A DNA stretch of 64,000 bases from Pseudomonadota bacterium. GTDB taxonomy: Bacteria; Pseudomonadota; Gammaproteobacteria; Burkholderiales; Gallionellaceae. The stretch lies in the NCBI GenBank assembly GCA_021800795.1, contig JAJYYO010000010.1:80-64079 (forward strand), written 5' to 3'. Of this stretch, positions 19,413-61,588 are shown in pieces. The translations under genes were made by a program, and so were the position numbers. Under the pieces are notes generated by a model, which saw only the letters and a program-made list of their open reading frames with translations, did no database searches and had not been told where the DNA came from. Position 1 is the first letter of the stretch, and each line of letters starts with the position of its first letter.

Positions 19413-19442
19413 TTACAGGCCAGCGTCATTTAAGGTGTTTTG
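19413..19442 (-). pseudogene. recoded, internally deleted duplicate of the metK 3' end
   Basis: CAA AAC ACC TTA AAT GAC GCT GGC CTG TAA (QNT-LN-DAGL*) versus [15 protein letters not shown]. Confidence 0.65.
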
Positions 19443-19512
19443 GCTACAGCGCACATCTGCTACGCAGATATGTGCCTACGCCGAAATACTGACAAACCCC
19501 TACGGGGCGGGC

Positions 19513-20676
19513 TTATAGCCCGGCATCCGCGCGGAGCGCGGCTGCTTTGTCAGTATTTTCCCAGGTGAATTCGGGTTCTTCGCGGCCGAAGTGACCGTAG
19601 GCAGCGGTTTTTTCATAGATGGGGCGCAACAGGTCGAGCATTTGCACGATGCCTTTCGGGCGCAGATCAAAATGACGCAACACCAGTTCGGTCAGTTTTT
19701 CATCGGAAATTTTGCCTGTTCCATAAGTGTCGACCATCACGCTGGTGGGTTTTGCAACGCCGATTGCATAGGAAACCTGCACCAGGCACTTGCTGGCAAG
19801 GCCCGCCGCAACGATGTTCTTGGCGACGTAACGACCGGCATAGGCAGCCGAACGATCCACCTTGGAGGGGTCCTTGCCGGAAAATGCGCCGCCGCCATGA
19901 GGCGCTGCGCCGCCATAGGTGTCCACGATGATCTTGCGACCGGTCAGTCCGCAATCGCCTTGCGGGCCGCCGACAACGAAACGACCGGTCGGGTTGACCA
20001 GAAAGTTGATATTGCCCTTGATGAGTTCTTTAGGCAACATCGGCATGATGATGTCTTCGATCGCCGCTTCGCGGATCGCTTCCAGGGTCATCTCCGGCGC
20101 ATGTTGCGTGGAGAGCACCACGGTGTCGATGCAGTGCGGTTTGCCGTCTATGTAGCGGATGGTGACCTGTGACTTGGCGTCAGGGCGCAGCCAGGGCAGA
20201 CGGCCATCGTGGCGCAATTGCGCCTGACGCTGTACAACCTGATGTGCCAGGTAAATGGCCACCGGCATCAACGTCGGCGTTTCATCGCAGGCGTAACCGA
20301 ACATCAGCCCCTGGTCACCCGCACCCTGATTTAAAAAGTCATCCGAGGCACGATCCACGCCCTGAGCGATGTCCGGGCTTTGCTTGTCGTAAGCGACCAG
20401 TACCGCGCAACCCTTGTAGTCGATGCCGTATTCGGTGTTGTCATAGCCGATGCGCTTGATGGTGTTGCGTGCGACCTGGATGTAATCGACATTGGCAGTG
20501 GTGGTGATTTCGCCGGCCAGAACCACCAGCCCGGTGTTGGTCAGCGTCTCGGCAGCTACCCGTGCATACGGATCTTGCGCTAGAATTGCATCCAGAATCG
20601 CATCGGAAATTTGATCCGAAACCTTGTCGGGATGGCCTTCGGACACGGATTCGGAGGTAAACAGAAATTCACTCAT
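19513..20676 (-). CDS. metK: S-adenosylmethionine synthetase
   Basis: [26 protein letters not shown]. Confidence 0.98.
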
Positions 20677-20746
20677 GGGTTGCCCGCTTGTTTGTCAATA
20701 AAAATGCATTCTATCAAATTCCCTAAAACTTGGTAGCATTGCGCCT

Positions 20747-21619
20747 ATGACTACTTTTATATTTAATGTATTTTTCAAATTGCTCTCGTCGTTGCCGCTG
20801 AGTGTGTTGCATCGCATGGGTGCGCTGCTCGGTCGGCTGACCTATGCGTTATCCGGGCAGTATGCGGCGCGCATGAGGGAAAATTTGCTGCAGGCGGGCT
20901 TTTCTTTGGATGAAGAGCGGGGCCAACGCCTGTTGTCGGCCAGTATTGCCGAGGCTGGCAAGGGCATCATGGAATTGCCCTGGGTGTGGGGTCGATCCTA
21001 CGAGGAAGTGTTGAGCCGCGTGCTGGCGTGTCGCGGGCTGCAGCATGTGCAAGCCGCTCAGGCGAGTGGCAAGGGCATTATTTATCTGACCCCGCATCTG
21101 GGATGCTTCGAAATGTGCGCATTGTATCTGGCAAAGCAGGCGCCGATCACGGTGCTGTATCGTCAGCCCCGGCTGCTCTGGCTGGAAGGGGTGATGCGCC
21201 GGGGGCGCGAGAGGGGGCAGGCCAGACTGGCGAAGGCGGATTTAAGCGGCGTGCGACTGATGTATAAGGCATTGAAACGCGGCGAGGCCATCGGCCTGCT
21301 GCCCGATCAGGTGCCCAGTCAGGGCGAAGGGGAGTGGGCAAATTTTTTCGGGCGGCCCGCCTACACCATGACGCTGGTGGGCAGGCTGGCACAGTCAAGC
21401 GATGCGACCGTGGTGCTGGTCAGCGCCGAACGGGTGGCGGGCGGGGCAGGTTACGTGATTCATTTTGAACCGTTGTTGCTCGATTATTCGCTGTCGGTCC
21501 CGCAACAGATCAATACGGCGCTGGAGAAGATGATACGGGCCTATCCTGCGCAATACCTGTGGAGTTATAACCGCTATAAAGTCTTGCACGGTATGCAGCC
21601 GGCGGTCAAAGAGCTTTGA
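20747..21619 (+). CDS. lipid A biosynthesis / lysophospholipid acyltransferase
   Basis: TPHLGCFE, LLPDQVP, FFGRPA, QYLWSYNRYK. Confidence 0.88.
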   Translation: MTTFIFNVFFKLLSSLPLSVLHRMGALLGRLTYALSGQYAARMRENLLQAGFSLDEERGQRLLSASIAEAGKGIMELPWVWGRSYEEVLSRVLACRGLQHVQAAQASGKGIIYLTPHLGCFEMCALYLAKQAPITVLYRQPRLLWLEGVMRRGRERGQARLAKADLSGVRLMYKALKRGEAIGLLPDQVPSQGEGEWANFFGRPAYTMTLVGRLAQSSDATVVLVSAERVAGGAGYVIHFEPLLLDYSLSVPQQINTALEKMIRAYPAQYLWSYNRYKVLHGMQPAVKEL

Positions 21620-22488
21620 TGCTGATGCGATTCGGCATTTTCATCTTGTGGCTGATACATTTTCTGCCGTTTCGTGTCATCGTCTCCATAGGCAATGGAC
21701 TCGGATCGTTGCTCTACCTGATGGCAACCGACAGGCGTCGCGTGGGCGAGATCAACCTGAAACTGTGTTTTCCCGAGAGGGACAACAAGGCGCGCGAGCA
21801 GCTTCTGAGAGATCATTTCAGGATGTTTGCGCGTGGATTGATTGAGCGCAGCATCCTGTGGTGGGCGAGTGCCGAGCGCATAAATGGTCTGATCCGCGTC
21901 GAGGGAATCGAACATTTTGAAGCGATCAAGGGCCAGCCTGCCATCCTGCTCACGCCGCATTTTGTCGGCATGGATGCGGGCGGACAGTGGATAGCTCAAC
22001 ATACCGATACGGTGTGCATGTATGCGAATCAAAAGAGCGTCTACATGACGGAGCTGTTGCTGAAAAAGCGCGCGCGTTTCGGCAAACAACTGCTTTATTC
22101 GCGCCAGCAGGGGCTGCGTGCCATCATCAAGGGCATGCGATCAGGCATGCCGTTCATCTATCCCCCGGATCAGGATCAGGGTGTCAAGGATGGCGTGTTT
22201 ATCCCGTTCTTCGGTGTGCCTGCCGCGACCATGACCTCGGTGTCACGCATTGCGCAGATGACGGGTGCGATCGTTGTGCCCAGCATCACGCGCGTGTTGC
22301 CGGGCGGCGCAGGTTATATTCTGACCTTCTATCCTGCATGGGAGAATTATCCGAGCGGTGACGATGCTCAAGATGCGCGGCGCATGAACGAATTCATCGA
22401 GTGTCGTGTGCGGGAAATGCCGGAGCAGTATTTCTGGCTGCACAGGCGGTTCAAAACCAGGCCGCAAGGCGAAGAAAAATTTTATTAG
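21616..22488 (+). CDS. lipid A biosynthesis acyltransferase (LpxL/HtrB family)
   Basis: TPHFVGMD, PPDQD, FFGVPA, QYFWLHRRFKTRP. Confidence 0.9.
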   Translation: MMLMRFGIFILWLIHFLPFRVIVSIGNGLGSLLYLMATDRRRVGEINLKLCFPERDNKAREQLLRDHFRMFARGLIERSILWWASAERINGLIRVEGIEHFEAIKGQPAILLTPHFVGMDAGGQWIAQHTDTVCMYANQKSVYMTELLLKKRARFGKQLLYSRQQGLRAIIKGMRSGMPFIYPPDQDQGVKDGVFIPFFGVPAATMTSVSRIAQMTGAIVVPSITRVLPGGAGYILTFYPAWENYPSGDDAQDARRMNEFIECRVREMPEQYFWLHRRFKTRPQGEEKFY

Positions 22489-22545
22489 CTGGTAGCCTGT
22501 AGCTTGTAGCCGTCGAAGTACCTTTTTTGCTACTAGCTACTAGCT
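22486..22545. repeat. inverted heptamer arrays (TAGCTNG / GCTACTA variant)
   Basis: tagctgg tagcctg tagcttg tagc ... gctacta gctacta gct. Confidence 0.75.
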
Positions 22546-22559
22546 CGAATGGAGTTGTG

Positions 22560-24023
22560 ATGAAATATAAAGATCTGCGAGACTTTATCGCGCAGCTTGA
22601 AAAAATCGGCGAGCTCAAGCGCGTCAGCCTGCCAGTCTCTACGCATCTGGAAATGACGGAAATCTGCGACCGCGTGCTGCGTGTACAGGGTCCGGCGATA
22701 CTGTTCGAGAAACCGGCAGGACAAACCATGCCGGTGCTGGCCAATCTGTTCGGCACGCCGCGCCGCGTGGCATTGGGCATGGGCGAGGAATCGATTGCGG
22801 CGCTGCGCGAGGTGGGAAAATTGCTCGCCTATCTCAAGGAGCCTGAGCCTCCCAAAGGATTGAAGGATGCCTGGGAAAAATGGCCGGTGTTGAAACAGGT
22901 GCTCAACATGTCGCCCAAAATATTATCCAGCGCGCCCTGTCAGGATGTGGTGTGGGAAGGCGCGGAGGTGGATTTGAGCAAGTTACCCATTCAGCATTGC
23001 TGGCCTGGCGACGTTGCACCCTTGATCACCTGGGGGCTGGTGGTCACCCGTGGCCCTGACAAGGCACGCCAGAATCTGGGCGTCTATCGCCAGCAGGTGA
23101 TCGGACACAACAAGGTCATTATGCGCTGGCTGGCGCATCGCGGCGGTGCGCTGGATTTTCGCGATCATTGCCTGAAGCACCCCGGCGTGCCGTTCCCGGT
23201 TGCGGTGGTGATCGGCGCCGATCCTGCCACGATACTGGGGGCGGTAACTCCCGTGCCGGATTCGTTGTCCGAATACCAGTTCGCCGGACTGTTGCGCGGC
23301 AGCAAGACCGAGCTGGTGAAATGTCTGGGCAGCGATTTGCAGGTGCCGGCCAGCAGCGAAATCGTGCTGGAAGGCGTGATTCATCCGGATGAGATGGCCA
23401 TGGAGGGGCCTTACGGCGACCATACCGGTTACTACAACGAGCAGGATAAATTCCCTGTGCTGACCATACAGCGCATCACGATGCGCCGCGATCCCATCTA
23501 TCACTCCACCTACACCGGCAAGCCGCCGGACGAACCCGCGATGCTGGGCGTGGCGCTCAACGAAGTGTTTGTGCCGCTGCTGCAGAAGCAGTTCCCGGAG
23601 ATAGTGGATTTTTATCTGCCGCCCGAAGGATGCAGTTATCGCATGGCGATCGTGTCGATCAAGAAACAGTATGCCGGGCATGCCAAGCGGGTGATGTTCG
23701 GCATCTGGTCTTTTTTGCGGCAATTCATGTATACCAAATTCATCATCGTGGTGGACGAGGATATCGACATACGCAACTGGCAGGAAGTGATCTGGGCGAT
23801 TACCACTCGTGTCGATCCGGTCAGGGATACTTTGCTGGTGGAAAACACGCCGATAGACTATCTTGATTTCGCCAGTCCCGTGTCGGGACTGGGCGGCAAG
23901 ATGGGGCTGGATGCGACCAACAAATGGGTAGGTGAGACGCAGCGCGAATGGGGTACGCCTATTGTGATGGATGAGGCGGTCAAGCGCCGTGTGGATGCGA
24001 TGTGGGGTGAATTGGGGCTGTAG
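22560..24023 (+). CDS. ubiD: 3-octaprenyl-4-hydroxybenzoate carboxy-lyase
   Basis: [30 protein letters not shown]. Confidence 0.96.
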
Positions 24024-24048
24024 AGAAGCCGATAAAAGCAAAGCCTTG

Positions 24049-25860
24049 TTAGCGTTTTTCCAGCCATTCGATCAGTGCATCCTGCGCGGGTTGGCCGTAT
24101 TTCGCGTTGGGGTGATTGATGATGAAAACCATGATCCATTGCTTGCCGCTTGCGGCGTGAACATATCCGGCGATGGATTTCACGCCTTCCAGCGATCCCG
24201 TCTTGAGATGGGCGTGCCCGGCAATTTCCCCGTCCTTGAAACGCCTCTTTACCGTGCCGTCCATGCCGAGTATCGGTAAGGACGCTTCCAGTTCAGCGGA
24301 ATAAGGGCTGAGTGCGGCGCGATTGAGAATGTCGGCGAGGTGATGCGCACTGATGCGTTCCGTGCGCGACAGGCCCGCACCGTTTTCCAGTACGAGTTCG
24401 GGAAATTGCCGGTTGCCCAGCCATCGCGCGATGGCTGAAACGCTGCGTGCAATGCTGGCAGTTCCTCCGTCAGTCGCACCCAAAGTCAGAAACAGTTGCC
24501 GTGCCATCGTGTTGTTGCTGAACTTGTTGATGTCGCGAATTATTTCCGACAAGGGCGGCGAGAGGTGGGTGGAAAAAACGGGCAGGGAGTCTGGTGCGAA
24601 CCCCGTTTTTACATGACCTTGAATCTGCCCGCCGAGCTCTTGCCATAATGCGGCAAACACGGCGAAAAAATAGTCATCAGGCGGCAAGAGAGAAAAATAA
24701 TCCTGCGCTTCGCCGCACAGAGCGGGGATTTTGCCTTCCAGCACGATGTTGCGCCCTTCCAGATGCGACTGGTAGGCGTCTTCGCCGTTGCACGGTAGGC
24801 GGGCGTCGGTGGTGATCCGGTTGATCAGGTGATAGCCATGCAATTCGGGTTCCAGCAGTGCGGTGGTTTGATTGCCGTCCGGCAGTAAACGCAAGTGCAG
24901 GGCGTTCAGATTGAGCAGCAGGGCGTCAGGGCCGACGTTGTAGGCGCGATTTGGCTTGTTGTCGAATGCAGAAGGATCATAGTGATCGTCTTGGAAAAAG
25001 CTGTTATCGAGCACGATATCGCCGCGAATCTCGCGCAATCCGCGCTGGCGAAGCTCATGCAGCCACAGCCAGAATTCTTCTATGGTCAGCTTGGGATCGC
25101 CATAGCCTTTAAAGACAACATTGCCGTGCAAAACGCCGTTCTCCAGTTTGCCGTCAAGATAGGCTTCGGTCTTCCAGCGATAGGCAGGCCCTAAAATTCC
25201 CAGTCCGGCATAGGTTGTCAGCAGCTTCATGGTTGAGGCGGGATTCATTGCCTGCGTGGCGTTCAGACTGATGAGCGGACGAGGTTTGCCTGCTTCGCGC
25301 ACTTCCACTGCGACGGCATTAAGCGGGATGTTTGCTTTTTCGAGTTCAGTTCGGACTGAGTCCGGCAATGGAATTGCATTTGCATTCAAAACGGACGATA
25401 ACAATATGCAGAGTAAAAGTGCGCAAGGCCAAAAAACAGCGTCATTCCCGCGCAGGCGGGAATCCAGTAGAAAAAAACATTCCGCGTAGCGGTCGAAATA
25501 TTTATGTTGTCCCGCGTTGCGGGAGCGTTTTAAATTATCTGGATTTCCGCATGCGCGGGAATGACGTTCAAATAAAATAGCTAGGAGCCTGTCGGACTTC
25601 TTTCGCGAGTGCGACGGGGATGATTTTTTTGTAGTGCAAGGAACGGTAAAGCGCCGTTTGGTCATTCCAAACAAGCAAGCCGCAACGCAGCAATACGTAA
25701 AAATCACCCCGTCCCGGAGGGTTGTCAGCAAAAATGGCGTCTGCGGCGTTACAAATCTTGACAATGGAATAACCATTGTCTGCAATTTGTGCCTTGCATC
25801 CATCCATTTTTTGCCGACAACGCATCTCGCGAAAGAAGTCCGACAGGCTCCTAGATTCAT
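24049..25860 (-). CDS. dacB: D-alanyl-D-alanine carboxypeptidase/endopeptidase PBP4 with ~130-aa repeat-derived N-terminal insert
   Basis: PASTMK (SxxK), SNN, KTGSL; ATG overlaps the bioA stop (ATGA); signal-peptide-like segment lies downstream of two repeat elements. Confidence 0.88.
   Translation of the reverse strand: MNLGACRTSFARCVVGKKWMDARHKLQTMVIPLSRFVTPQTPFLLTTLRDGVIFTYCCVAACLFGMTKRRFTVPCTTKKSSPSHSRKKSDRLLAILFERHSRACGNPDNLKRSRNAGQHKYFDRYAECFFLLDSRLRGNDAVFWPCALLLCILLSSVLNANAIPLPDSVRTELEKANIPLNAVAVEVREAGKPRPLISLNATQAMNPASTMKLLTTYAGLGILGPAYRWKTEAYLDGKLENGVLHGNVVFKGYGDPKLTIEEFWLWLHELRQRGLREIRGDIVLDNSFFQDDHYDPSAFDNKPNRAYNVGPDALLLNLNALHLRLLPDGNQTTALLEPELHGYHLINRITTDARLPCNGEDAYQSHLEGRNIVLEGKIPALCGEAQDYFSLLPPDDYFFAVFAALWQELGGQIQGHVKTGFAPDSLPVFSTHLSPPLSEIIRDINKFSNNTMARQLFLTLGATDGGTASIARSVSAIARWLGNRQFPELVLENGAGLSRTERISAHHLADILNRAALSPYSAELEASLPILGMDGTVKRRFKDGEIAGHAHLKTGSLEGVKSIAGYVHAASGKQWIMVFIINHPNAKYGQPAQDALIEWLEKR
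25441..25565. mobile_element. GTCATTCCCGCG-type palindromic element in frame in dacB
   Basis: gtcattcccgcgcaggcgggaatccag ... ctggatttccgcatgcgcgggaatgac (LLDSRLRGND). Confidence 0.88.
25581..25854. mobile_element. CTAG-flanked MITE in frame in dacB
   Basis: Perfect 29-bp TIR ctaggagcctgtcggacttctttcgcgag; 270 bp net (90 codons, no stop). Confidence 0.92.
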
Positions 25861-27185
25861 GTCAGTGTCTCGATGATGTTTTTCGTGCGCGTGAGCAGAA
25901 TATGCATTTCTTCATCAGAGATAACGTAGGGAGGCATGAAGTAAACCGTGTTGCCCATCGGGCGCAACAGCAGCTCGTGCTGTAATCCAAGCTGAAAGCA
26001 GCGCTGTGCAAAATCCGCATGCGGAGACACCACTTCAAACGCCCAGATCATGCCGGTGTTGCGCCAGTTTTTAACGAAGGGCAGTTCGCGCAGCGGTTGT
26101 GCGATGCTGTTGAGAAAGGCGGCCTTTTGCCGATTGGCAGCCAGCACATTGTCCTGTTCAAAAATATCCAGCGTTGCAAGAGCTGCGCGGCAGGCCAGCG
26201 GATTGCCTGTATAGGAATGCGAATGCAGAAAGCCGCGCGCGGTCTCTGTGGCATAGAAAGCCTGATAGATTTTGTCGGTCGTCATCACGATCGACAGGGG
26301 GAGGTAACCGCCGGTGATGCCTTTGGAAATCAGCAGGAAGTCGGGCGCGATCCCGCCCTGTTCGCAGGCGAACATCGTGCCTGTTCTGCCCATGCCGACG
26401 GCAATCTCGTCGGCGATCAGATGTACGTCATATTTATCGCAAAGCTGGCGTGCCAGCTTGAGGTAGATCGGGTGAAACATCGCCATGCCGGCGGCACCCT
26501 GAACCAGCGGCTCGATGATGAAGGCGGCAAGCTGTGCGTGATGTTGCTGCAAATGTGTTTCAAGCGCCTCTGCGCAGCGCAGCGCGCAGGTTTCACTTGT
26601 TTCGCCTTCTGCAGCATTGCGCGAGTCAGGGCTCGCGATGGTTGCCTGTTGGCGGATCAGCATGCCATAAGCATCGCGGAACAGGGCTACATCGGTCACT
26701 GATAAAGCGCCCAGGGTTTCGCCGTGATAGCTGTTTTGCAAACTGATGAACTGCACTTTGTCAGGCTGTCCGGTATTGCGCCAGTAGTGTGCGCTCATCT
26801 TGAGTGCGATTTCGGTGGCCGATGCACCGTCCGAACCGTAGAAGCAGTGACCGAGGCCTGGCGGTGCAAGTTCACGCAGACGCTCGGACAGCTCGATCAC
26901 GGGCTCGTGGGTAAAGCCTGCAAGCATCACGTGTTCCAGTTTTTCCAGTTGGCAGCGGATGGCGGCATTGATGCGCGGGTTGCTGTGACCAAACAGATTG
27001 ACCCACCATGAGCTGACTGCATCCAGATATTTGTTTCCGTCGTAGTCATGCAGCCATACCCCCTGTCCGCGCGCAATGGGCATCAGTGGAAACGTTTCAT
27101 ATTGTTTCATCTGCGAGCAGGGGTGCCAGACGGCGGACAGCGAGCGACTGATCAGATCGGCATTGGTTGGCGTGTTTTTTTGCAT
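25857..27185 (-). CDS. bioA: adenosylmethionine-8-amino-7-oxononanoate aminotransferase
   Basis: VWHPCSQM, SSWWVN, SYHGET, DEIAVG, SKGITGG, HSHSY. Confidence 0.96.
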   Translation of the reverse strand: MQKNTPTNADLISRSLSAVWHPCSQMKQYETFPLMPIARGQGVWLHDYDGNKYLDAVSSWWVNLFGHSNPRINAAIRCQLEKLEHVMLAGFTHEPVIELSERLRELAPPGLGHCFYGSDGASATEIALKMSAHYWRNTGQPDKVQFISLQNSYHGETLGALSVTDVALFRDAYGMLIRQQATIASPDSRNAAEGETSETCALRCAEALETHLQQHHAQLAAFIIEPLVQGAAGMAMFHPIYLKLARQLCDKYDVHLIADEIAVGMGRTGTMFACEQGGIAPDFLLISKGITGGYLPLSIVMTTDKIYQAFYATETARGFLHSHSYTGNPLACRAALATLDIFEQDNVLAANRQKAAFLNSIAQPLRELPFVKNWRNTGMIWAFEVVSPHADFAQRCFQLGLQHELLLRPMGNTVYFMPPYVISDEEMHILLTRTKNIIETLT

Positions 27186-27469
27186 CGGTGAATCATAGCG
27201 AATTTTGCGGCCTGTGCGCAGAACTTCAGTTTATTCGACAGACGAATTGATCGTCGAAAAAGAAGGCTTATGTTATTGGAATCATGCCGGCTGGCCGGCT
27301 TTGCAACGGTGAATAAAGTATCTGCGAAAAATGAATATTTTAACAATATCGTGACAACTACACCCGCTTCGCTTTGAGTATTGCTCCATCTGTGGCATTC
27401 TTCGCTCTTTAATATGCACTAAATGTATCGCCCCGGTGTTTGAGGCGCGGCAGTTGGAGGATGGCAGTA

Positions 27470-28720
27470 ATGAAATGTGTAGATGATTTCCGCCTGCGCT
27501 TAGGTTCGCGCGAGTTGGTGCCGATTATGATAGGTGGGATGGGGGTGGATATTTCTACCGCCGAATTGGCTCTGGTGGCAGCGCGCCTGGGCGGCGTCGG
27601 GCATATTTCCGACGCCATGCTGCCGACGGTGACCGATAAGCGTTACAAGACAAAGTTTGTCAGCGACAAGCAAAAACAATATAAATTGAACATCTTGCAG
27701 GCGGATAAATCGATCGTGCAATTCGATTTGGCACAGGTCGCGGAAGCTACGCGTCTGCATGTGCGCAGCACGATGGAGGCCAAGCGCGGCGATGGCATGA
27801 TTTTCGTCAATTGCATGGAAAAGCTGACCATGAACGCGCCGCGCGAAACCCTGCGTACGCGTCTGGTTACCGCGCTGGACGAGGGCATAGACGGCATCAC
27901 CCTGGCAGCCGGATTGCATCTGGGTTCTTTTGCCATGATGCAGGATCACCCGCGCTTCCGCGATGCGCAATTGGGCATCATCGTTTCGTCAGTGCGCGCC
28001 CTGCAATTGTTTCTGCGCAAGAATGCCAGGCTGAACCGTCTGCCTGATTATATCGTGGTGGAGGGGCCGCTGGCCGGTGGGCATCTGGGCTTCGGCATGG
28101 ACTGGGCGCAATATGATCTGCGCAGCATTGTTGCCGAGATGCAGTTGTTTCTCAAGACTGAACATCTGGATATCCCGGTCATCGCGGCAGGCGGCATTTT
28201 CACCGGCAGCGACGCGGTAAGCTATCTGGAGACAGGCTCAGCGGCCGTGCAGGTGGCGACACGTTTTACGGTTGCCGATGAGTGCGGCATTCCTGAAAAG
28301 GTGCAGCAGGAGTATTTCAAGGCCAGTGAAGAAGATATCGAAGTAAATATGCTGTCACCCACCGGTTATCCGATGCGCATGTTGAAAAATTGCCCGGCGA
28401 TCGGTTCGGGGATACGCCCGAACTGCGAGGCTTTCGGTTATCTGCTGGACGGTAACGGCGGATGTGCCTACATCGACGCCTATAACCGGGTCGTTGCGGC
28501 AAATCCTGACGCCAAGAAAATTTCCGTTCCCGACAAGACCTGCTTGTGCACGCACATGCGCAATTATGATTGCTGGACTTGCGGGCACTATACCTATCGG
28601 CTCAAGGACACGACCCATCGCAACGAGGATGGTAGCTACCAGATTTTGTCCGCCGAGCATGTCTTTCACGACTATCAGTTCAGTAAGGATAACAGGGTGG
28701 CGCTGCCGCCGAGGAAATAA
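27470..28720 (+). CDS. nitronate monooxygenase family FMN oxidoreductase
   Basis: IGGMGVDIS, EGPLAGGHLG, IAAGGI, QVATRF. Confidence 0.85.
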   Translation: MKCVDDFRLRLGSRELVPIMIGGMGVDISTAELALVAARLGGVGHISDAMLPTVTDKRYKTKFVSDKQKQYKLNILQADKSIVQFDLAQVAEATRLHVRSTMEAKRGDGMIFVNCMEKLTMNAPRETLRTRLVTALDEGIDGITLAAGLHLGSFAMMQDHPRFRDAQLGIIVSSVRALQLFLRKNARLNRLPDYIVVEGPLAGGHLGFGMDWAQYDLRSIVAEMQLFLKTEHLDIPVIAAGGIFTGSDAVSYLETGSAAVQVATRFTVADECGIPEKVQQEYFKASEEDIEVNMLSPTGYPMRMLKNCPAIGSGIRPNCEAFGYLLDGNGGCAYIDAYNRVVAANPDAKKISVPDKTCLCTHMRNYDCWTCGHYTYRLKDTTHRNEDGSYQILSAEHVFHDYQFSKDNRVALPPRK

Positions 28721-28734
28721 ATTTTACCTCTGCC

Positions 28735-29129: not shown

Positions 29130-29130
29130 T

Positions 29131-32420: not shown

Positions 32421-32421
32421 T

Positions 32422-52784: not shown

Positions 52785-52806
52785 CGATCGAGGTCGCGCA
52801 GCACTT

Positions 52807-52932: not shown

Positions 52933-52938
52933 CGCTTT

Positions 52939-53040
52939 TTAACGTGAAGCTCGCGTAGCGATGTCCGGCTTCGCCTCCGCGCTCTCCCCTCCGGGAAATA
53001 ACCCGTTTCGCCTCATCTCACGGGGAGAGGAGGCGAACGA
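52939..53040. mobile_element. family-A element, copy 6 (truncated)
   Basis: ttaacgtgaagctcgcgtagcg...gctctcccctccgggaaataacc...ggggagagg. Confidence 0.8.
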
Positions 53041-53075
53041 TAATAGCACACCCGAATCGCCGCGCAAGTTTTCCG

Positions 53076-54242
53076 TTAATCCGCCTGTTTGCGCAAAAAA
53101 GAGGGGATGTCATAGGTATCCACACCGGATTTTTCCATCGCATCCACTGCGGCACGGCGGCCGCTGCGCATGATGGTGGGCGTTTCCAGTTCCATGTAAT
53201 TGACATTGGTCATCGGCTGATCGTGCGTGCCGGTTCTTTTGTAGTCCTGATCCACATAGACAATTGCGGGCTTGGCCATTTTGCGTTCCAACGGCAAACC
53301 GAGACCCGTTGCAACCACGGTGACGCGCAACTCATCTCCCATCGATTCGTCAAACACCGAACCCAGGATGACCGTCGCTTCTTCGGCGGCGAATTGTACG
53401 CAAGCCATCACTTCTTCCATTTCCCTGACCTTCAAAGAACTGGTGGACGTGATGTTCACCAGCACGCCGCGCGCACCGGTCATATCTACGTCTTCCAGCA
53501 AGGGACTGGCGATGGCGCGTTCAGCCGCCATCCTTGCGCGATCCGGCCCTGAGGCTACGGCGGAACCCATCATCGCCATGCCGTTTTCCGACATCACCGT
53601 GCGCACGTCGGCAAAGTCGACGTTGATCAGGCCAGGTACATTGATGACTTCGGCGATACCCGCAACCGCCCCCTGCAACACGCCGTTTGCCGCCTTGAAT
53701 GCTTCAGGCACCGTGACATCGTTGCCCAGCACTTCCATCAGCTTGGAGTTAGGCACGATGATCAGCGAGTCCACATGCTCATGCAGCGCCTTGATGCCTT
53801 CGGCGGCGAAGCGCATGCGATTGCCTTCGTAAATGAACGGCTTGGTCACCACCGCTACGGTCAGGATATTCATTTCGCGGGCAATTTGCGCAACGATAGG
53901 CGCAGCACCGGTGCCTGTTCCACCGCCCATTCCGGCTGTGATAAACACCATGTTTGCGCCGGTGATTATCTCCTTGATGCGTTCGCGATCTTCCTCTGCG
54001 GCAGCCCGACCTACCGACGGCTTGGCGCCTGCGCCCAGACCCTTGGTGATCGCAGCACCGATTTGCAGCTGTGTGCGCGCCTTGCTGCGATTCAATGCCT
54101 GCGCATCGGTGTTGATGGCGATAAATTCCACGCCCTGCACGCCCTGCTCGATCATGTGATCGACCGCATTGCCCCCGCAGCCGCCGACACCGATCACCTT
54201 GATGACCGCATCCTGAGATTGTGCTTCCATGATTTCAAACAT
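53076..54242 (-). CDS. ftsZ: cell division protein FtsZ
   Basis: GVGGCGGN, GMGGGTGTG, DFADV, DIPSFLRKQAD. Confidence 0.99.
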   Translation of the reverse strand: MFEIMEAQSQDAVIKVIGVGGCGGNAVDHMIEQGVQGVEFIAINTDAQALNRSKARTQLQIGAAITKGLGAGAKPSVGRAAAEEDRERIKEIITGANMVFITAGMGGGTGTGAAPIVAQIAREMNILTVAVVTKPFIYEGNRMRFAAEGIKALHEHVDSLIIVPNSKLMEVLGNDVTVPEAFKAANGVLQGAVAGIAEVINVPGLINVDFADVRTVMSENGMAMMGSAVASGPDRARMAAERAIASPLLEDVDMTGARGVLVNITSTSSLKVREMEEVMACVQFAAEEATVILGSVFDESMGDELRVTVVATGLGLPLERKMAKPAIVYVDQDYKRTGTHDQPMTNVNYMELETPTIMRSGRRAAVDAMEKSGVDTYDIPSFLRKQAD

Positions 54243-54313
54243 CTCTGTCTCCTTTTTATGACAAAATTTTAATTGATCAGACTCTGACCGCTCTTAACCT
54301 AAAAACTGAATCC

Positions 54314-54368
54314 TTCACGCAACAACTTGGGGCATAGCCCCTTAGTTGTGTGGGGAATGCCCTTGCGG
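54314..54368 (+). repeat. family-B 55-bp element, copy 1 (ftsA-ftsZ)
   Basis: ttcacgcaacaacttggggcatagccccttagttgtgtggggaatgcccttgcgg. Confidence 0.9.
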
Positions 54369-54381
54369 CATGGATCTTTTT

Positions 54382-55605
54382 CTAAAACCACGACTTCATT
54401 CTTGCCAGGACATCGCTAAACGAACTTGATTGTTTGCGTGTCTCTTCATTGTTCTTGTAGTGCTCCAGGCCGTATAACAACAGGCCTACCCCGGTCGCCA
54501 TGCGTGGCGTTTTCACCACATCCGACAAACCGCCGACATACCTGGGGATACCCAGCCTGACCGGCAGATGGAAAATTTCCTCGCCCAATTCGACCATGCC
54601 CTGCATGGCGCTGCTGCCACCCGTAATGACAATCCCCGAAGACAGCAAATCATCGAAACCGCTGCGTCGCAGTTCCGCCTGCACCAGTGAATAAAGTTCT
54701 TCCACGCGCGGCTCTATTACTTCAGACAGGGTTTGCCTGGACAACATGCGCGGGCCGCGTTCGCCCACGCCCGGCACTTCGATCACGCCGTCATCCGCCA
54801 GCTGGCGCAGTGCGCAGCCGTGTCTGATCTTGATGTCTTCGGCATCCTGGGTCGGCGTGCGCAGCGCCATCGCGATGTCGTTGGTGATCTGATCTCCGGC
54901 AATCGGTATCACCGCGGTGTGGCGTATCGAACCTCCGGTAAACACCGCGATGTCGGTGGTGCCGCCGCCGATATCCACCAGACACACGCCCAGATCCATT
55001 TCATCCTCGGCCAGCACCGCACGACTGGAAGCCAGTGGTTGCAGGATCAGCTCGTTCACCTCAAGTCCGCAGCGGTGTATGCATTTCATGATGTTCTGCA
55101 CCGCCGCTACGGCCCCCGTGACGATGTGCACTTCCACGTCCAGCCGCATCCCGCTCATGCCCAGCGGCTTCTTGATGCCGTCCTGTCCGTCTATGCTGAA
55201 TGCCTGCTCAAGCACGTGCAATATCTGCTGATCGCCCGCCAGACTGATGGAGCTGGCCGTCTCAAGCACCCGCTCTATGTCGGCCTGGGTGACTTCCTTT
55301 TCCTTGATTTTCACCATGCCGCGAGAATTCGTGCTGCGTATATGGCTGCCCGCGATCCCGGTATGCACCGCACTGATCTTGCAATCTGCCATCAGCTCGG
55401 CTTCCTCCAGTGCGCGCTGAATTGCCCCCACCGTCGCCTCGATGTTGACCACCATGCCTTTCTTTAAACCGGAGGATTCGTGCATCCCCATGCCGATCAC
55501 TTCCAGCAAGCCGTCATCCCTGACTTCGCCTACGATGACCACAATCTTGGACGTGCCGATGTCCAGGCCGACCACCAGATTTTTAGCATCCCTGTTTCTG
55601 CTCAT
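54382..55605 (-). CDS. ftsA: cell division protein FtsA
   Basis: GLDIGTSK, DIGGGTTD, TGGSS; ends MKSWF*. Confidence 0.97.
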   Translation of the reverse strand: MSRNRDAKNLVVGLDIGTSKIVVIVGEVRDDGLLEVIGMGMHESSGLKKGMVVNIEATVGAIQRALEEAELMADCKISAVHTGIAGSHIRSTNSRGMVKIKEKEVTQADIERVLETASSISLAGDQQILHVLEQAFSIDGQDGIKKPLGMSGMRLDVEVHIVTGAVAAVQNIMKCIHRCGLEVNELILQPLASSRAVLAEDEMDLGVCLVDIGGGTTDIAVFTGGSIRHTAVIPIAGDQITNDIAMALRTPTQDAEDIKIRHGCALRQLADDGVIEVPGVGERGPRMLSRQTLSEVIEPRVEELYSLVQAELRRSGFDDLLSSGIVITGGSSAMQGMVELGEEIFHLPVRLGIPRYVGGLSDVVKTPRMATGVGLLLYGLEHYKNNEETRKQSSSFSDVLARMKSWF

Positions 55606-55619
55606 CGCATGATCTCCAC

Positions 55620-55740
55620 ATCAGAAGACAGAGGACAGGGGGCAGAGGACAGCCGTCTATTCCCCGTCAGCGCTCCGGTGTCCTTAACTTTTAATATTTT
55701 CATCCCTCAGTCCTCCGATTTCTGTCTTCTTGTCTGACGG
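55620..55740. repeat. inverted heptamer arrays (GACAGAG variant) across the ftsQ 3' end
   Basis: cagaagacagaggacaggggcagaggacag ... cagtcctccgatttctgtcttcttgtctg. Confidence 0.7.
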
Positions 55741-56419
55741 CAAATCCGTTGCGATAGCGCATATCCACATATTTCACTCCCTCTGTATTCCGCCATGCAT
55801 CTGTCTTCTGAACAGCCACGAATCTGGCCAGGCGTTCATCCATCGCTTCACGTCCCAATTCCACCACCATGTCATTGCTCAAATGCAGCTGCCAGGCATG
55901 ACGCGGCGACAGGGACAACTGGGTCACCTGCAAATGCAACGGCGCGAGTTGTTCGCTGAACTTTGCATATCTTTGCGCCACTTCCGCAGAGCTGCCATCC
56001 GTTCCGATGAATCTTGGCAGTTTCTGCGTCGTTTCAGCCACAAACACTACGCCCTGGCTGTTTATCAGCGCTTCGTCATTCCAGTGCGCGATCGCCTTGT
56101 ATTCTTCTAACTGCACCGCCAGCCGGTTCGGGAATTCGCGGCGTATGCTGACGCGGCGCACCCAGGGCAGCTTCTCCAATGTCTGCCTGAGACTGTCTAT
56201 ATCCACCGTAAAGAAATTACCCCGCACTTCATGTCTTACTGATTCCAGCACCGCAGCGGCTGCCACATGTTCGGGTGCGGCACTCAGGCGCACGCTCTTG
56301 ATGGGCAGCAATTTCGGCATATGCACTGCGTAATGCACCGCGCCGTACAGCGCCGCCAACACACTGCAAGCAAACAGTGCATTAGCGATACTGCGCAGCA
56401 GGGGGGCGTTATCCCACAT
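55700..56419 (-). CDS. ftsQ: cell division protein FtsQ
   Basis: [34 protein letters not shown]. Confidence 0.93.
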
Positions 56420-57419
56420 GGGCCAGCTCCAGCACACGCAACACCAGTTGCTCGAAGCTGATGCCCGCCTTGCGCGCCGCCATCGGCACCAGGCTGTGAT
56501 CCGTCATGCCGGGCGAGGTGTTCGCTTCCAGCACGTAAGGCTGCCCTGACTCGCTCATCAGAAAGTCCACCCGTCCCCAGCCTTGTCCGCCTATCAAGGC
56601 AAATGCCAGCTTCGCAAGTCTCTGCATTTCCGCTTCCTGAGTCGCAGCCAAACCGCTCGGGCACAGATAACGCGTGTCATCGCGCAGATATTTCGCCTCA
56701 TAGTCATAGAACTCATTGACAGGCTCAATCTTGATGACCGGCAAAGCTTGTTCTCCCAGTATCGCCACGGTGTATTCGCCGCCGCCGATAAAGCGCTCCG
56801 CGATCACCAAAGGGTCGTGCTTCGCAGCGCTCGAATAGGCCGATTGCAATTCGACTGTCGCCTTGACCTTGCTGATGCCGACGCTGGACCCTTCATTGGC
56901 AGGTTTCACGAACAGCGGCAGCCCCAGTTGTTGCACGACGTCGGCACCGTTGCTTTGCTCGGTCAACATCACGAAATCCGGGATAGGCAAGCCACCTGCC
57001 TGCCAGACCAGCTTGCTGCGCCATTTGTCCATGCCCAGCGCGGAAGCCATCACGCCGCTGCCGGTATACGGAATCCCCAGCAACTCCAGCGCCCCCTGTA
57101 CCGTACCGTCTTCACCAAAGCGTCCGTGCAGCGCGATGAAAACGCGATCGAATCCTTCGTCCAGCAGCGCCTGCAAATTTCTCGTGGCCGGATCAAACGC
57201 ATGGGCATCCACACCGCTGCGCTGCAAGGCAGCCAATACCGCGGCGCCGCTTTTAAGCGAAACTTCACGCTCGGCGGAACGACCGCCTAACAGCACCGCA
57301 ACCTTGCCGAAAGAACCAGGATCGAGGATCGAGACCGCAAGGGTCTTCCCCGCACAACTAAGGGGCTGCGCCCCAAGTTGTTGCGTGAAGGATTGAGGAT
57401 TGAGATTCTGGTTATCCAT
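56409..57419 (-). CDS. ddl: D-alanine--D-alanine ligase with repeat-derived N-terminal insert
   Basis: [32 protein letters not shown]. Confidence 0.96.
57335..57389 (-). repeat. family-B 55-bp element, copy 2 (in frame in ddl)
   Basis: Reverse-complement homolog of 54314-54368, flanked by heptamers. Confidence 0.9.
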
Positions 57420-58557
57420 GTTTCGCATACTCGCCGATAATTTTTACTTCAGGGTGCAGCAGCACCCCGGTCTGTTTTTCCACTGTCTCACGCACCAGAA
57501 TGATCAGGTTTTCAATATTTGCCGCCGTGGCGTTGCCGACATTGACAATAAAGTTCGCGTGCTTGTCAGATACCTGCGCACCTCCGATACGTCTGCCTTT
57601 CAGCCCGCACATTTCGATCAGGCGCGCCGCATGATCGCCAGGCGGATTGCGGAACACCGAGCCTGCATTCGGCAAACTCAGCGGCTGGCTCACGATTCGT
57701 TTTGCCAGCAGCTCCTTGATTTGCCTGCGCGCCGTTTCACCATTTCCCTGCTCGAATGAAAGCCATGCGCCGACAAAAAACTCTTCAGAGGAATGAGGAG
57801 CGAGGAACGAGGAATGAGAAAAACCAGCCAATTCCCCGCGATCCTCAATCCTCAGTCCTCGATCCTGAATTCTGGCCACGCTTCTGTAGCCAATTTCGTA
57901 TTCCTGCGGCGTACGCTCGATCAATTCGCCGCTGCGCGTCATCACCTGCACCTTCACCACGTGCTGCCAGGTTTCTCCCCCATAGCATCCCGCGTTCATC
58001 GCCAGCATGCCGCCCAGCGTGCCGGGAATACCGGCAAAGAACTCGGCACCGCTGCGCCCGTGCAAGGCGGCAAAGCGTGCCAGTTTCGCACCCGGCACAC
58101 CGGCCTGTGCGTAGATCAGGCCATCTTCCTGAACGGCCAATTCTTTCAGCGCGCCGTGCAGCAGCAAAACCGAACCACCGACTCCGCCGTCGCGCACCAG
58201 CAGATTGCTGCCCAGCCCGACGACCAGCAAAGGCTCATCGGGTGGCAGGCTGCACAAAAACACCCGCAAATCATCCAGGTCGACAGGCTGATAAAACCGC
58301 GCCGCCATTCCGCCGGCGCGCCAGCTGGTGTGGCGGCTCATGGGCTCGTCGAAACTCAACTTGCCCCGCAAACCAGAGGACAGAGGACGGAGGACGGAGG
58401 ACAGGCGTGTTGTTGCCGCTACGCGGCAATCTATTGATGCAGGCGCAGCAATGCTGCCCACCGCCTCTGTCTTCTGTCTTTCACGCAACAACTCGGGGCT
58501 TAGCCCCTTAGTTGTGCGGGGAAGACCCTTGCGGTCTCTGTTCTCTGTTACGTTCAT
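57412..58557 (-). CDS. murB: UDP-N-acetylmuramate dehydrogenase with two repeat-derived inserts
   Basis: [38 protein letters not shown]; ATG overlaps the murC stop. Confidence 0.95.
57788..57867. repeat. inverted heptamer arrays in frame inside murB
   Basis: gaggaat gaggagc gaggaac gaggaat ... atcctca atcctca gtcctcg atcctg. Confidence 0.85.
58480..58534 (+). repeat. family-B 55-bp element, copy 3 (in frame in murB N-terminus)
   Basis: ttcacgcaacaactcggggcttagccccttagttgtgcggggaagacccttgcgg. Confidence 0.9.
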
Positions 58558-60062
58558 GTCTGCGCCATCTGTTTGATTGCACCCGGCACGTTGCCGATAG
58601 AGCCCGCACCCATGGTCAGCACCACATCGCCGTCCTTTACCAGTTGCAGTATGGTCTTCGGCATGTCGGCAATCTGCTCGACAAATATCGCCTCGCTTTG
58701 TCCCGCCAGTCGCAACGCGTGCATCATTGCGCGGCCATCCGCTGCCACCAGCGGTATCTCTCCTGCCGCATACACTTCCGCCAGCACCAGTACGTCCACG
58801 CCGCACAGGATTTTCACGAAGTCCTCGAAAAGGTCGCGCGTACGGGTATAGCGATGCGGCTGGAATGCCAGCACCAGACGGCGGCCCGGAAACGCGCCGC
58901 GTACCGCCGCCAGCGACGCCGCCATTTCGACCGGGTGATGACCGTAGTCATCGATTAACGTAAAGCTACCTCGTCCGCCAGAGGACGAGGTGACGTTTGC
59001 TCTTTCACCCTCCGGGGGATAACCAGTGACTTGCCCGTTTACGGGCTTAGTCAAATGGCTAGTAGTTTCATCAAAGTTGGATAGAGGGAGCGCAATTTCT
59101 CCGTAGCGCTGGAAACGCCTGCCCACACCCTCGAATTCACCCAGGGCGGCAACAATGGCTTCATCCGCCACGCCGATTTCCAGCCCGATAGCAATGGCAG
59201 CCAGCGCATTCAATACATTATGGTTGCCCGCCAGATTGAGGGTAATGTCGAGATCCTTGGGTGTGCCGTTTTGTCGACATTGCGCGGTAAACAACATCCG
59301 GCCCCCCTGTGGGCGCACGTTTACCGCACGGATCTGCGCCGCCTCGCTGAACCCATAGGTGGTCACCGGCTTGGTGATGCGCGGCAAAATTTCCTGCACA
59401 TGGATGTCGTCCACACACAGCATGGCGCGACCATAGAACGGCAGATGTTCGACGAAATCCACGAAGGCCTGCTTGAGGCGCGAAAAATCATGACCGTAGG
59501 TTTCCATGTGATCCGCATCGATATTGGTAATCACCGCGAGTATCGGTTGCAGATACAAAAAAGACGCATCCGATTCATCTGCTTCCACCACGATGAATTC
59601 TCCGGTGCCGAGCTTGGCATTGGTGCCGCTGCTGTTGAGTTTGCCGCCGATCACGAAGGTCGGGTCAAACCCGCCTCTGGCCAACACGCTGGCAGCCAGC
59701 GAAGTCGTCGTGGTCTTGCCGTGCGTACCGGCGACCGCAATCCCCTGACGCAGACGCAGCAGTTCGGCCAGCATCATCGCGCGCGGCACCACCGGAATAT
59801 GGCGCGTGCGAGCAGCCTGCACTTCCGGATTGTCCTGGCCCACAGCGGTGGATACCACCACGACATCGGCGTTCTTTACATTTTGCTCGTCATGACCGAC
59901 GGATACCGCGGCGCCCAACTGGCTCAGGCGTTTGGTCGCCGCGTTTTCGCTCAGATCAGAACCGCTCACGGCGAATCCCAGATTGAGCAATACCTCGGCA
60001 ATGCCGTTCATCCCCGAGCCGCCGATGCCAACAAAATGGATGTGCTTGATTTTATGTTTCAT
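58554..60062 (-). CDS. murC: UDP-N-acetylmuramate--L-alanine ligase with internal repeat-derived insert
   Basis: [38 protein letters not shown]. Confidence 0.97.
58955..59093. mobile_element. family-A element, copy 7 (degenerate, in frame in murC)
   Basis: ttaacgtaaagct...ccctccgggggataaccagtgactt...atggctagtagtttcatc...gagggagcgc aligns with copies 4 and 5. Confidence 0.75.
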
Positions 60063-60073
60063 TTTGTCTGCAT

Positions 60074-60097
60074 GGGCGCGATTAATCGCGCTCCTAT
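60074..60097. repeat. REP-like palindrome overlapping the murG stop
   Basis: gggcgcgattaatcgcgctcctat. Confidence 0.6.
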
Positions 60098-61170
60098 GCT
60101 TCTCCTTTCTCGACTATTTCGGCACATATCCCAGCCACCGTATCTGCTGCATGGCTCTTGGCCGCATTGCGCGCCTGTTGCGCCATCGCCATTAATTTTT
60201 CCCGGACAAGTTCTCTCAATAACTGTGCGAGCCTGTCCGCATTCAGTTCTGACTGCGGCAGCAAAATAGCCGCTCCTCGTTCGCTCAAGAAACGTGCGTT
60301 ATGCGTCTGGTGATCGTCCACCGCAAACGGAAACGGAATCAACAGGCCGGCCACGCCGGCTGCCGCCAGCTCAGCCACGGTCAGCGCACCGGATCGGCAA
60401 ATCACCAGATCAGCTGCTGCGTAACTTGCCGCCATATTTTCGATGAAGGGCTGGATGTCAGCCTGTATGCCCAGCTGGTTGTACAAAGCTACAACCGCGG
60501 TGTGATGAGCACGGCCTGTCTGATGCACTACATTGGGACGCACATCTGCCGGCATTTTCGCAAGTGCTTCCGGTACGGCGTCATTGATGGCCTTCGCCCC
60601 CAGACTGCCGCCCACCACCAGCAGGTTTAGGCGGCCTGTGCGTTTTGCATAGCGCAACTCGGGCGGGTCAATATTCACAATTTGACCGCGCACCGGATTG
60701 CCGCACCACAGCGCGCCGGGCAACACATCCGGAAAACCCGTCAGTACGCGGTTCGCTACATGTGCCAGCACCTTGTTGCTCAGACCCGCAATTGAATTTT
60801 GCTCGTGTATCACCAGCGGAATCCTCAGCGCGGCGGCCATCAAGCCGCCCGGAAATGTGATATAGCCGCCCATCCCCAGCACCAAGTCGGGTCTGACGCG
60901 CATCATCGCAATCAGGCTCTGCCACAACGCTACCGCAAGATTCAGCGGCAGCAGCAGCTTGCGCAATATACCCTTGCCGCGCAGACCCGAAAAACGCACT
61001 GTCTCCATACGGTAGCCGTGTTTCGGCGCCAGATCGGCTTCCATGCTGTTCGGCGCGCCCAGCCAGGTCACCTGCCAGCCTTCACCACGCAACACGTCGG
61101 CCACCGCAAGAGCCGGGAATATGTGCCCGCCCGTGCCTCCGGCCATAATTAATATAGAGCGGCTATTCAT
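60094..61170 (-). CDS. murG: undecaprenyl-PP-MurNAc-pentapeptide GlcNAc transferase
   Basis: [34 protein letters not shown]. Confidence 0.97.
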
Positions 61171-61258
61171 GGCATTTCTCTGAGATGGGCACATTTCTGC
61201 CGAAGGCAAAAATATGGCCCCCGGTTCCACCTGCCATAATTAAAATGTTTCGGCTCAC
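61163..61258 (-). other. 31-codon mini-ORF: recoded duplicate of the murG N-terminus
   Basis: GTG-start [40 protein letters not shown]; stop lies just inside the murG start. Confidence 0.8.
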
Positions 61259-61282
61259 GAAGCACCTCCTGAGTCAGAGGAA

Positions 61283-61403
61283 TAAGGATTGAGGATTGAG
61301 GATTGAGGATACAAGTCGTTGTGTGCCGCGTCGCGGCACACTTTATCAAAGACGCGGCGCAGCCGCGACAATGCTTCTGTCCTCCGCCCTCTGTACTCTG
61401 TCG
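61283..61403. repeat. heptamer arrays enclosing two small palindromes
   Basis: (GGATTGA)x3; gtgtgccgcgtcgcggcacac; cgcggcgcagccgcg; ttctgtcctccgccctctgtactctgtcg. Confidence 0.75.
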
Positions 61404-61409
61404 CCTGAT

Positions 61410-61588
61410 TCATATTGGCAACCCCCGTGCAATCCTGCGATTTTGGCTACGCCTTAAAGAAAGATTGGAGATTATAATTTTCACAATGGCAAGCAACGGG
61501 CAAGTCGACGGTTTTGGCTGCGCCGAAACAGAAGGTTGGAAATTATTGAATTTCATATTGGCAACCCTCTGGCCAACCTTCTGTTTTC
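61410..61588 (-). repeat. ~72-bp tandem units carrying recoded ftsW C-termini
   Basis: Stops at 61553, 61481 and 61410; [30 protein letters not shown]. Confidence 0.85.

Follow-up and report, generated by a model that had tools for sequence, protein, structure and literature searches.

Spare, synonymously recoded gene ends beside a small DNA hairpin: a probable family of miniature mobile cassettes in Betaproteobacteria

In a 64,000-nt stretch of a Gallionellaceae genome (assembly GCA_021800795.1, contig JAJYYO010000010.1; the whole stretch is called the window below), the genes metK, ftsW and murG each possess a second copy of one of their ends, next to a small hairpin element that we call E. 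We consider it probable that these loci hold very small mobile cassettes of Betaproteobacteria that are site-specific and non-autonomous, encode no protein and restore the gene that they enter. The cassette would be [AAAA-X...rest of the gene end to the stop or start codon-short spacer-X'-TTTC-E], where X is the beginning of the carried gene end and X' its reverse complement. It would land at G|AAAA a few codons inside the end of a gene, and the host's own end (AAAA-X2...) would be shifted outward, where it persists as a silent copy. Insertions into essential genes would be tolerated, as each cassette brings a working gene end with it.

All three genes are on the minus strand and all positions are window coordinates. 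The common order is gene-G|AAAA-D1 (gene end)-spacer-X' (reverse complement of the start of D1)-TTTC-[E]-AAAA-D2 (displaced end). The murG layout is the mirror image of this, and reading the plus strand gives the same order as in metK and ftsW. The parts of the three loci are:

19513-19560, minus strand: metK D1, the working terminus, GAAAATACTGACAAA...CTATAA, from GAAAA to the stop codon; TGG precedes it
19497-19512, minus strand: metK spacer, 16 nt
19483-19496, minus strand: metK X', TTTGTCAGTATTTC, the exact reverse complement of GAAATACTGACAAA
19442-19482, minus strand: metK E, full length, 41 nt, GGCGTAGGC-(ACATATCTGC GTA GCAGATGTGC)-GCTGTAGCC; G000:C22:19517-19565 in the genus survey
19413-19441, minus strand: metK AAAA and D2, the second metK end, AAAACACCTTAAATGACGCTGGCCTGTAA, encoding ENTLNDAGL*, with an internal deletion
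19389-19441, minus strand: metK AAAA and D2 together with the tail GGCTACGCCTGCGGCGCTTGTTCC, all that is left of an older cassette that has lost its E
61553-61588, minus strand: ftsW D1, the working terminus, GAAAAC...TGA
61516-61552, minus strand: tail of ftsW cassette A, with spacer (61541-61552), X' TCCAACCTTCTGTTTC (61525-61540) and collapsed E GGCGCAGCC (61516-61524)
61445-61515, minus strand: ftsW cassette B as a whole, with AAAA and D2, NRRLARCLPL*, at 61481-61515
61445-61480, minus strand: tail of ftsW cassette B, with spacer and degenerate X' (61454-61480) and collapsed E GGCGTAGCC (61445-61453)
61410-61444, minus strand: ftsW AAAA and D3, the third terminus, NRRIARGLPI*
61209-61258, minus strand: displaced murG 5' end with the orphan start GTG at 61258; AAAA and D2 when read on the plus strand
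61187-61208, plus strand: tail of the murG cassette, with X' GGGCACATTTC (61187-61197) and E remnant TGCCGAAGGCA (61198-61208)
61117-61186, minus strand: working murG 5' end, with a new leader (61171-61186), the ATG at 61170 and the codons to GGGCACATATTC (X)

An earlier sequence-only reading of the window had described duplicated ends of the three genes in a common order, flipped at murG, and this is confirmed at all three loci. Several of its details needed revision. The GNA mini-hairpins that it took as the units are present, and are the collapsed remnants of an E of 40-70 nt. The nested palindrome that it saw at metK is the intact inner hairpin of a full-length E. The displaced metK copy exists as described, and together with 19389-19412 forms the remnant of an older, second cassette; this remnant is homologous to cassette 2 of another Gallionella contig (L131). 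The claim that X' is complementary to the functional copy holds exactly at metK, where X is the first 15 nt of D1, and breaks down in the second ftsW cassette, where X' is degenerate and resembles the first X' rather than its own D. The ftsW locus thus consists of two cassettes and three termini, its units ending in ...TTTC-GGCGCAGCC and ...TTAA-GGCGTAGCC, each followed by AAAA. At murG, the orphan start gives way to TTTT-TGCCTTCGGCA-GAAA-TGTGCCC, after which a short leader runs to the true ATG (61170); the same murG site carries a full-length E in three relatives (G005, L020; G053, L041; G043, L044). The window holds the sequence TTTCGGCGNAGCCAAAA twice, where 0.05 matches would be expected by chance. 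The orphan murG start and the in-frame GTG codons (61230, 61258) upstream of the true ATG give misleading longer open reading frames (ORFs), and the ORF listing for the window places the murG start at 61230.

The nature of E emerged when the ftsW-murG junctions of 20 genomes from the genus were set side by side. In most relatives E is full length, spanning 40-70 nt between TTTC and AAAA. Its closing stem is GGY-GNA-GRC ... GYC-GNA-RCC, and this encloses one or two further hairpins that have C-GNA-G loops; deletion of the sequence between the two GNA words leaves GGCGNAGCC. A pattern for full-length E, TTTCGGYGNAG...GNARCCAAAA, gave ~150 matches in 44 of 61 genus genomes (0-9 copies per genome), and the reversed pattern, used as a control, gave 3, so the motif does recur beyond the three loci. 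With a stricter pattern, the matches listed from a species collection fall on more than 120 contigs, nearly all of Betaproteobacteria; among these matches are Gallionella, Sideroxydans, Ferrigenium, Sulfuricella, Methylophilaceae, Rhodocyclaceae, Thiobacillus, Paraburkholderia, Cupriavidus, Comamonas, Rubrivivax, Bordetella and Pigmentiphaga. The strict pattern had no match in 2.9 million viral contigs, a blastn search of a plasmid collection with one full-length E copy returned nothing, and six E-bearing loci gave chance-level matches only in Rfam 15.

Across 170 distinct E sites the layout follows a single rule, G|AAAA-X...gene end-spacer of 0-60 nt-rc(X)-TTT-C-[E]-AAAA-X2 (rc, reverse complement), in which the carried gene end reaches the stop codon or, in the antisense case, the start codon. 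Where X could be placed exactly, 44 of 49 sites have a first A-run of 4, a T-run of 3 and an A-run after E of 4, and G precedes the first A-run in 45 of the 49 scorable sites. TTTC lies directly 5' of E in 137/145 sites. X' is 5-25 nt long and the whole unit 70-150 nt, too short for any ORF. Recurrent targets are the 3' ends of ftsW, metK, acs, argF, cysH, ccmE, hisC and dksA, the 5' ends of murG and nuoD, and a dps-like gene. Stacking is common, in arrays of two to four units with a period of 70-140 nt. In antisense (5'-end) cassettes the spacer often holds CCTCC, which provides the restored gene with a new ribosome-binding site. A cargo-less unit, GAAAACGGCT-AA-AGCCGTTTC-E-AAAA, was seen in a Comamonas metagenome-assembled genome (L094) just after the 16S rRNA 3' end ...CCTCCTTTCTG, so E units with a bare X:X' hairpin also exist outside protein genes.

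Occupied and empty sites together show what is inserted. In three genomes with an empty ftsW-murG site (G009, G015, G002) the ftsW stop overlaps the murG start as ATGA (GTATGAGC), with nothing between. In occupied genomes D2 of ftsW still overlaps the murG start in this way and the cassette lies between D1 and D2. The insert is therefore the segment from the AAAA of D1 through the end of E. In cassette-free genomes the ftsW site reads GAGAAY or GAAAGC, not GAAAAY, in 6-7 of ~9 cases, which hints that a target word is required. The comparison is not a clean one, since the cassette may have brought the AAAA of D1 with it.

The window comes from a metagenome-type assembly of 63 contigs, and the contig of one relative ends inside E (L013), both of which would suit an artificial joining of two strains. 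Contigs from two independent studies (X1 at 226x, X3 at 52x) span the ftsW-murG structure with 0 differences over 61100-61750, and the same layout is found in isolate genomes (Cupriavidus phytorum, Paraburkholderia lacunae, Azonexus caeni). We thus regard a chimera, which the sequence-only reading had named as a way in which it could fail, as next to impossible. For metK, no joint of presence and absence was found among the metagenome contigs.

The divergence between the working and displaced copies argues that both were once in use. We aligned 72 sense-type D1/D2 pairs by codon (895 codons) and found pS 0.58, pN 0.093 and pN/pS 0.16, against 0.97 for a random-mutation control. The value is the same with or without the ftsW cases, the mismatch profile has a period of 3, and D2 keeps the stop codon at the same position in 57/72 pairs. 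The earlier suspicion that the synonymous differences exceed what neutral decay of a dead duplicate would leave is thus borne out on a larger set, with a ratio far from 1. It follows that D1 and D2 were each functional gene ends while they diverged, i.e. in different lineages. Individual loci are consistent with this. In an array of the form gene-[D1]-[D2]-D3 (L035, G073), D1 and D3 differ by 1 nt. The cassette between them specifies identical 13 residues through codons with 11 synonymous changes, and its X' fits the start of its own gene end. The ftsW of G006 has a working end like that of G004 and a displaced end like that of G019. The displaced ftsW copies of G010 and G017 show synonymous differences only, which points to independent recent insertions and fits poorly with a single ancient insertion that then decayed neutrally. 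We conclude from these data that cassettes are gained repeatedly and pass between related species, with D1 carried within the cassette.

These numbers also bear on the simplest transposon-like account, in which E alone is a tiny transposon that makes widely staggered cuts, with target duplications of 20-140 bp, so that D1 and D2 start out as identical copies and diverge where they lie. Some pairs are indeed identical, as this account would have it (L176, 35/35; L124, 78/78; L047), and insertion with a long target duplication, in which two copies of the target that are identical at first flank the insert and nothing further is added, has been described (PMC2853133; Kobayashi laboratory). Divergence of a dead copy in place should give pN/pS of roughly at least 0.5 (our own estimate, not a computed control) rather than 0.16. 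The spacer and X' that separate D1 from E are missing from the empty ftsW/murG sites, and the apparently native ...GTTTC end at hisC in G054 turned out to be another, decayed cassette, with a decayed E behind an array of three. Long target duplication by E is accordingly improbable to us.

A second account, the main rival of mobile cassettes, dispenses with a dedicated recombinase today: the structures would have had a rare origin, such as template switching at a hairpin, and would have spread by homologous recombination after DNA uptake. The recombining arms would be the gene body on one side and D2 with the downstream gene on the other, and each interspecies transfer would reset D2 to the recipient's recently functional end. 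This would explain why no enzyme co-occurs with E, and it suits mosaic D copies, such as that at L153, where the first 37 nt are identical and the remainder has diverged synonymously. Non-synonymous or scrambled codons are elevated right beside E in some D2 (G019, L072, L083), and an allele with a single ftsW terminus (run X7, below) fits recombination through a 16-nt repeat. On the other hand, homologous recombination is inefficient between sequences that are ~80% identical, and it leaves unexplained why the units start at G|AAAA and end at TTTC-E-AAAA across dozens of genes, why X' tracks the start of its own D1 and why the fold of E is strand-specific. Recombination from diverged donors, which the sequence-only reading had listed as an alternative, may be a route of spread and does not account for the universal junction; as a full explanation we hold it to be rather unlikely.

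The fold of E is strand-specific. Of 159 distinct copies, 138 fold more stably on the TTTC>AAAA strand than on the complement, with a mean difference of 3 kcal/mol. This holds whether E is sense (84/102) or antisense (30/33) to the gene, so the bias is not a property of the mRNA. The GNA words are always on the TTTC>AAAA strand. GNA words as in d(GCGNAGC) hairpins give very stable DNA loops with sheared G.A pairs. Within the predicted stems, G.T pairs (168) outnumber A.C mismatches (about 9-25). At its third pair, the closing stem has C-G in 93 copies, T-A in 26, T.G in 34 and C.A in 16, and the inner stems show compensatory substitutions (e.g. TAAC/GTTA, TGAC/GTCA, TCAC/GTGA). RNAalifold on a MAFFT alignment of E recovered the outer stems only, as the inner hairpins vary in length. 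That E folds preferentially on one strand whatever the direction of the gene points to a single-stranded DNA step. One E copy at the hisC 3' end of G054 (L024) has a 56-nt structured insertion in its loop, which indicates that E itself can be a target. Three cassettes form an array at this locus, and behind them lie a decayed E and a native end that has decayed as well.

The same data speak to whether E and the X:X' stem form a host regulatory or structural element (an mRNA 3' stabiliser, a processing site or a terminator) with the duplications as by-products. Such a role would suit the position at the gene ends of many housekeeping genes and the conservation of the stems with compensatory changes. 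It is at odds with the folding of an identical DNA strand for sense and antisense E, with the lack of a T-run after E and of an Rfam family, with empty sites in sister species and with the decay of E to 9-nt remnants in the source genome. We judge it very unlikely. For the reason of strand alone, skipping of the X-X' stem at the RNA level, also raised by the sequence-only reading, is unlikely.

Returning to mobile cassettes, we favour an enzyme that would act on single-stranded DNA and recognise E, with base pairing defining GAAA+X. Movement would proceed via folded single-stranded DNA, E being the protein-recognised hairpin, with the crossover within the A-run and the enzyme supplied in trans. 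TTTC (plus X'), 5' of the foot of E, may pair with GAAA(+X) and so set the left end or the target. In circular form, the unit would hold a long imperfect hairpin, X'-TTT-(C.A)-E-AAA-X. The cassette start and the arm before E could then be two halves of one folded site, split in the A-run, following the logic of integron attC sites. Alternatively, TTTC and X' would sit in the position of the guide of IS608, with X' resembling an engineered extended guide. Cassettes for a new gene may, as a guess, originate by capture of flanking sequence, with an upstream GAAA used as the left end, followed by quasi-palindrome correction.

More tentatively, and with less confidence than we place in mobility as such, E cassettes might be a natural guide-programmed insertion system for single-stranded DNA: a conserved three-way hairpin of ~50 nt beside an X' arm that would select the left end or target by pairing with the sequence adjoining GAAA, the X-X' loop carrying the replacement gene end. 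E would recruit the enzyme, possibly one of the host's own. If this doubtful reading were true, elements of ~100 nt would be able to home into essential genes throughout a bacterial class. No smaller self-restoring homing element would be known, and gene termini would have a new way of being exchanged between species.

The search for an enzyme gave no candidate that tracks E. Y1_Tnp (PF01797), the transposase type of the HUH/RAYT mobiliser suggested for the hairpins, has matches in 29 of 41 relatives, and these do not follow E counts (7 Y1 matches and 0 E copies in G003, 1 and 9 in G018). None of six IS200-type tnpA loci has an E-like hairpin adjoining it. Integron integrase was above the curated cut-off in 18/41 genomes, unrelated to E counts, and IS91/Y2 enzymes are rare and unrelated to E. 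The dif site of the source genome (C51, AATACGCATAATGTATATTATGTCAAAT) is unlike E, which disfavours mimicry of XerCD/dif. For an autonomous master copy, up to 7 kb upstream of 174 E sites was searched for a distant X matching X'; the only yield was an inverted pair of a larger E-containing repeat in G014, without a transposase. An unrecognised enzyme of this kind might still act in trans. The sequence-only reading had thus anticipated terminus cassettes with a shared hairpin and a diverged working copy, to which a junction rule can now be added, while the recombinase that it invoked was not found; its hairpin-recognising enzyme fits the strand-specific fold if taken as an enzyme of single-stranded DNA, and not as a Y1 HUH/RAYT protein, and the co-occurring RAYT/HUH or integrase genes that it proposed to look for bear no relation to E in these relatives. 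Two side observations concern such genes. An integron integrase gene of the source genome (G000 C16:94349-94987) is split into two frames, and in G008, G013 and G014 several Y1_Tnp genes of 230-250 aa lie within a few kb of intI.

Several observations weigh against mobile cassettes. No enzyme was found, there being no co-occurrence of Y1_Tnp, IntI or IS91 Y2 with E, and the complete genomes G012 and G015 carry E without any Y1 gene. The model does not account for how a cassette, with its X', first comes to be made for a new gene. X' is mismatched to its own D in some displaced cassettes (ftsW cassette B; dksA arrays in G065 and G061). Between species the cassettes are 0.83-0.87 identical, about equal to the flanking genes, a comparison that is uninformative on recent transfer, and vertical descent with constraint on E could account for some loci. 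No excision circle or active transposition was seen in the data, which are assembled contigs only. Run X7, from a related strain, contains an allele with a single ftsW terminus and D1-type codons; this fits deletion through the 16-nt D1/D3 repeat and not a clean site-specific excision.

In the source genome the same layout is present at four further gene 3' ends:

C12:13642: 3' end of an aminotransferase-like gene
C28:33585: acs 3' end
C43:26842: cysH 3' end
C46:18541: ccmE 3' end

Only the metK (41 nt) and ccmE (56 nt) copies have a full-length E; the rest are remnants of 9-11 nt. These copies look like relics, not active elements. The acs junction reads GAGAAC in the working copy and AAAAC in the displaced copy, so the GAAAA word has been lost from the working copy; the displaced acs end continues into a 7-nt repeat array.

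Other repeats were noted nearby. A larger repeat of ~130 nt with an E-like hairpin, …CAAGACAACGAAG-TTTC-E-AAAA-GTGACTAGC…GGGCTAC…, occurs at C9:4657 and C38:19588 of the source genome and at 1480-2270 of L034 (G014). The two inverted G014 copies, 661 nt apart in the interval from sucB to the next gene, enclose an (AAAACCC)n array as well as an ORF of 87 aa. This repeat could be a relative or an ancestor of E. In the window, 61286-61409, between the third ftsW end and the orphan murG start, belongs to a different repeat family with a palindromic core (TTGTCGCGGCTGCGCCGCG...GTGCCGCGACGCGGCACACAAC) between 7-nt arrays (ATCCTCA/AATCAGG type); copies are present on many contigs of the source genome and its relatives, and also between ftsW and murG in G024, G023 and G013. 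At 8108-9145, classical GTAG-type REP pairs (GTAGGATGCGGTGACAACCGCATC...) lie on both sides of a small two-gene module, and the last ~19 codons of the neighbour gene are duplicated on both sides, a spare-gene-end layout with a different repeat.

If the cassettes are mobile, gene-less elements of ~100 nt can enter essential genes harmlessly by bringing a spare gene end, and synonymously recoded duplicate termini that look engineered have a natural origin. The terminal codons of housekeeping genes would pass between species more frequently than the remaining codons, which would matter for phylogenetics and for the annotation of gene starts and stops. Annotation is affected in any case, as the displaced pieces yield false small ORFs and false upstream starts, such as the murG GTG codons noted above. 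There would probably be an enzyme that works on single-stranded DNA in its folded form, the site being set by an arm that base-pairs, and this would be relevant to programmable DNA insertion.

Full-text searching of the literature found no description of such hairpin gene-end cassettes. A close parallel for the gene ends is in integrative elements: e14 and phage 21 in icd of E. coli and islands in tRNA and tmRNA genes have attachment sites that carry the end of the target gene. In these, as in E cassettes, the element supplies a working end, the host end is displaced to the far side and the differences are mostly synonymous. Integrative elements are kilobases in size and encode their own integrase, whereas the E unit is 70-150 nt and gene-less, and one hairpin family serves dozens of genes. 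The gene-end duplication is shared; no integrase ORF fits within the unit, and the core common to both junctions is only AAAA. Allomyces atp6-ORF360, a gene hybrid with a mobile ORF in fungal mitochondria, likewise has a foreign functional C-terminal piece that arrived with a mobile element and displaced the native one, but it encodes a homing endonuclease and relies on double-strand-break repair.

Integron attC sites and the CTX-type folded attP resemble E cassettes in having a folded single-strand site, a cassette start complementary to the 5' part of its own site, and arrays. Unlike E, attC has RYYYAAC/GTTRRRY boxes; the borders of E are TTTC/AAAA, and the cassettes lie in housekeeping gene ends and not by intI/attI. 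The REP/BIME/RAYT systems share small GC-rich hairpins with a G-N-A-G word, but REPs have hundreds of copies with a fixed GTAG and lack the GAAAA target, the X' arm and the replacement of a gene end. In E the N of GNAG varies freely and there is no link to a Y1 gene. The nearest published observation that we found is of BIMEs that took in the 3' end of the adjacent rayt gene (PMC2817692). Miniature inverted-repeat transposable elements (MITEs) also differ, as the units of E have no terminal inverted repeats and the duplication is 10-140 nt and diverged.

IS200/IS605 elements and their gene-less PATE derivatives share a strand-specific hairpin, insertion that takes place by a fixed word of 4-5 nt and leaves no classical short target duplication, and nucleotides 5' of the hairpin foot (TTTC in E) that are complementary to the target or left-end word (GAAA), as in the guide logic of IS608 (PMC3201880). 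The fixed-word target, the TTTC in the guide position and the strand-specific fold are all found in E cassettes; the pairing itself is presumed. Extended guides have been engineered to sharpen IS608 targeting (PMC5934647), and X' resembles a natural version of such a guide. In contrast to the two subterminal hairpins of IS200/IS605 and PATE elements, an E cassette has only the right-end hairpin and a gene-specific left end; it carries a host gene end, is of low copy number and has no TnpA nearby or co-occurring. E cassettes thus resemble gene-end-regenerating elements and hairpin-based elements of single-stranded DNA, and belong to none of these families, because defining features of each are lacking.

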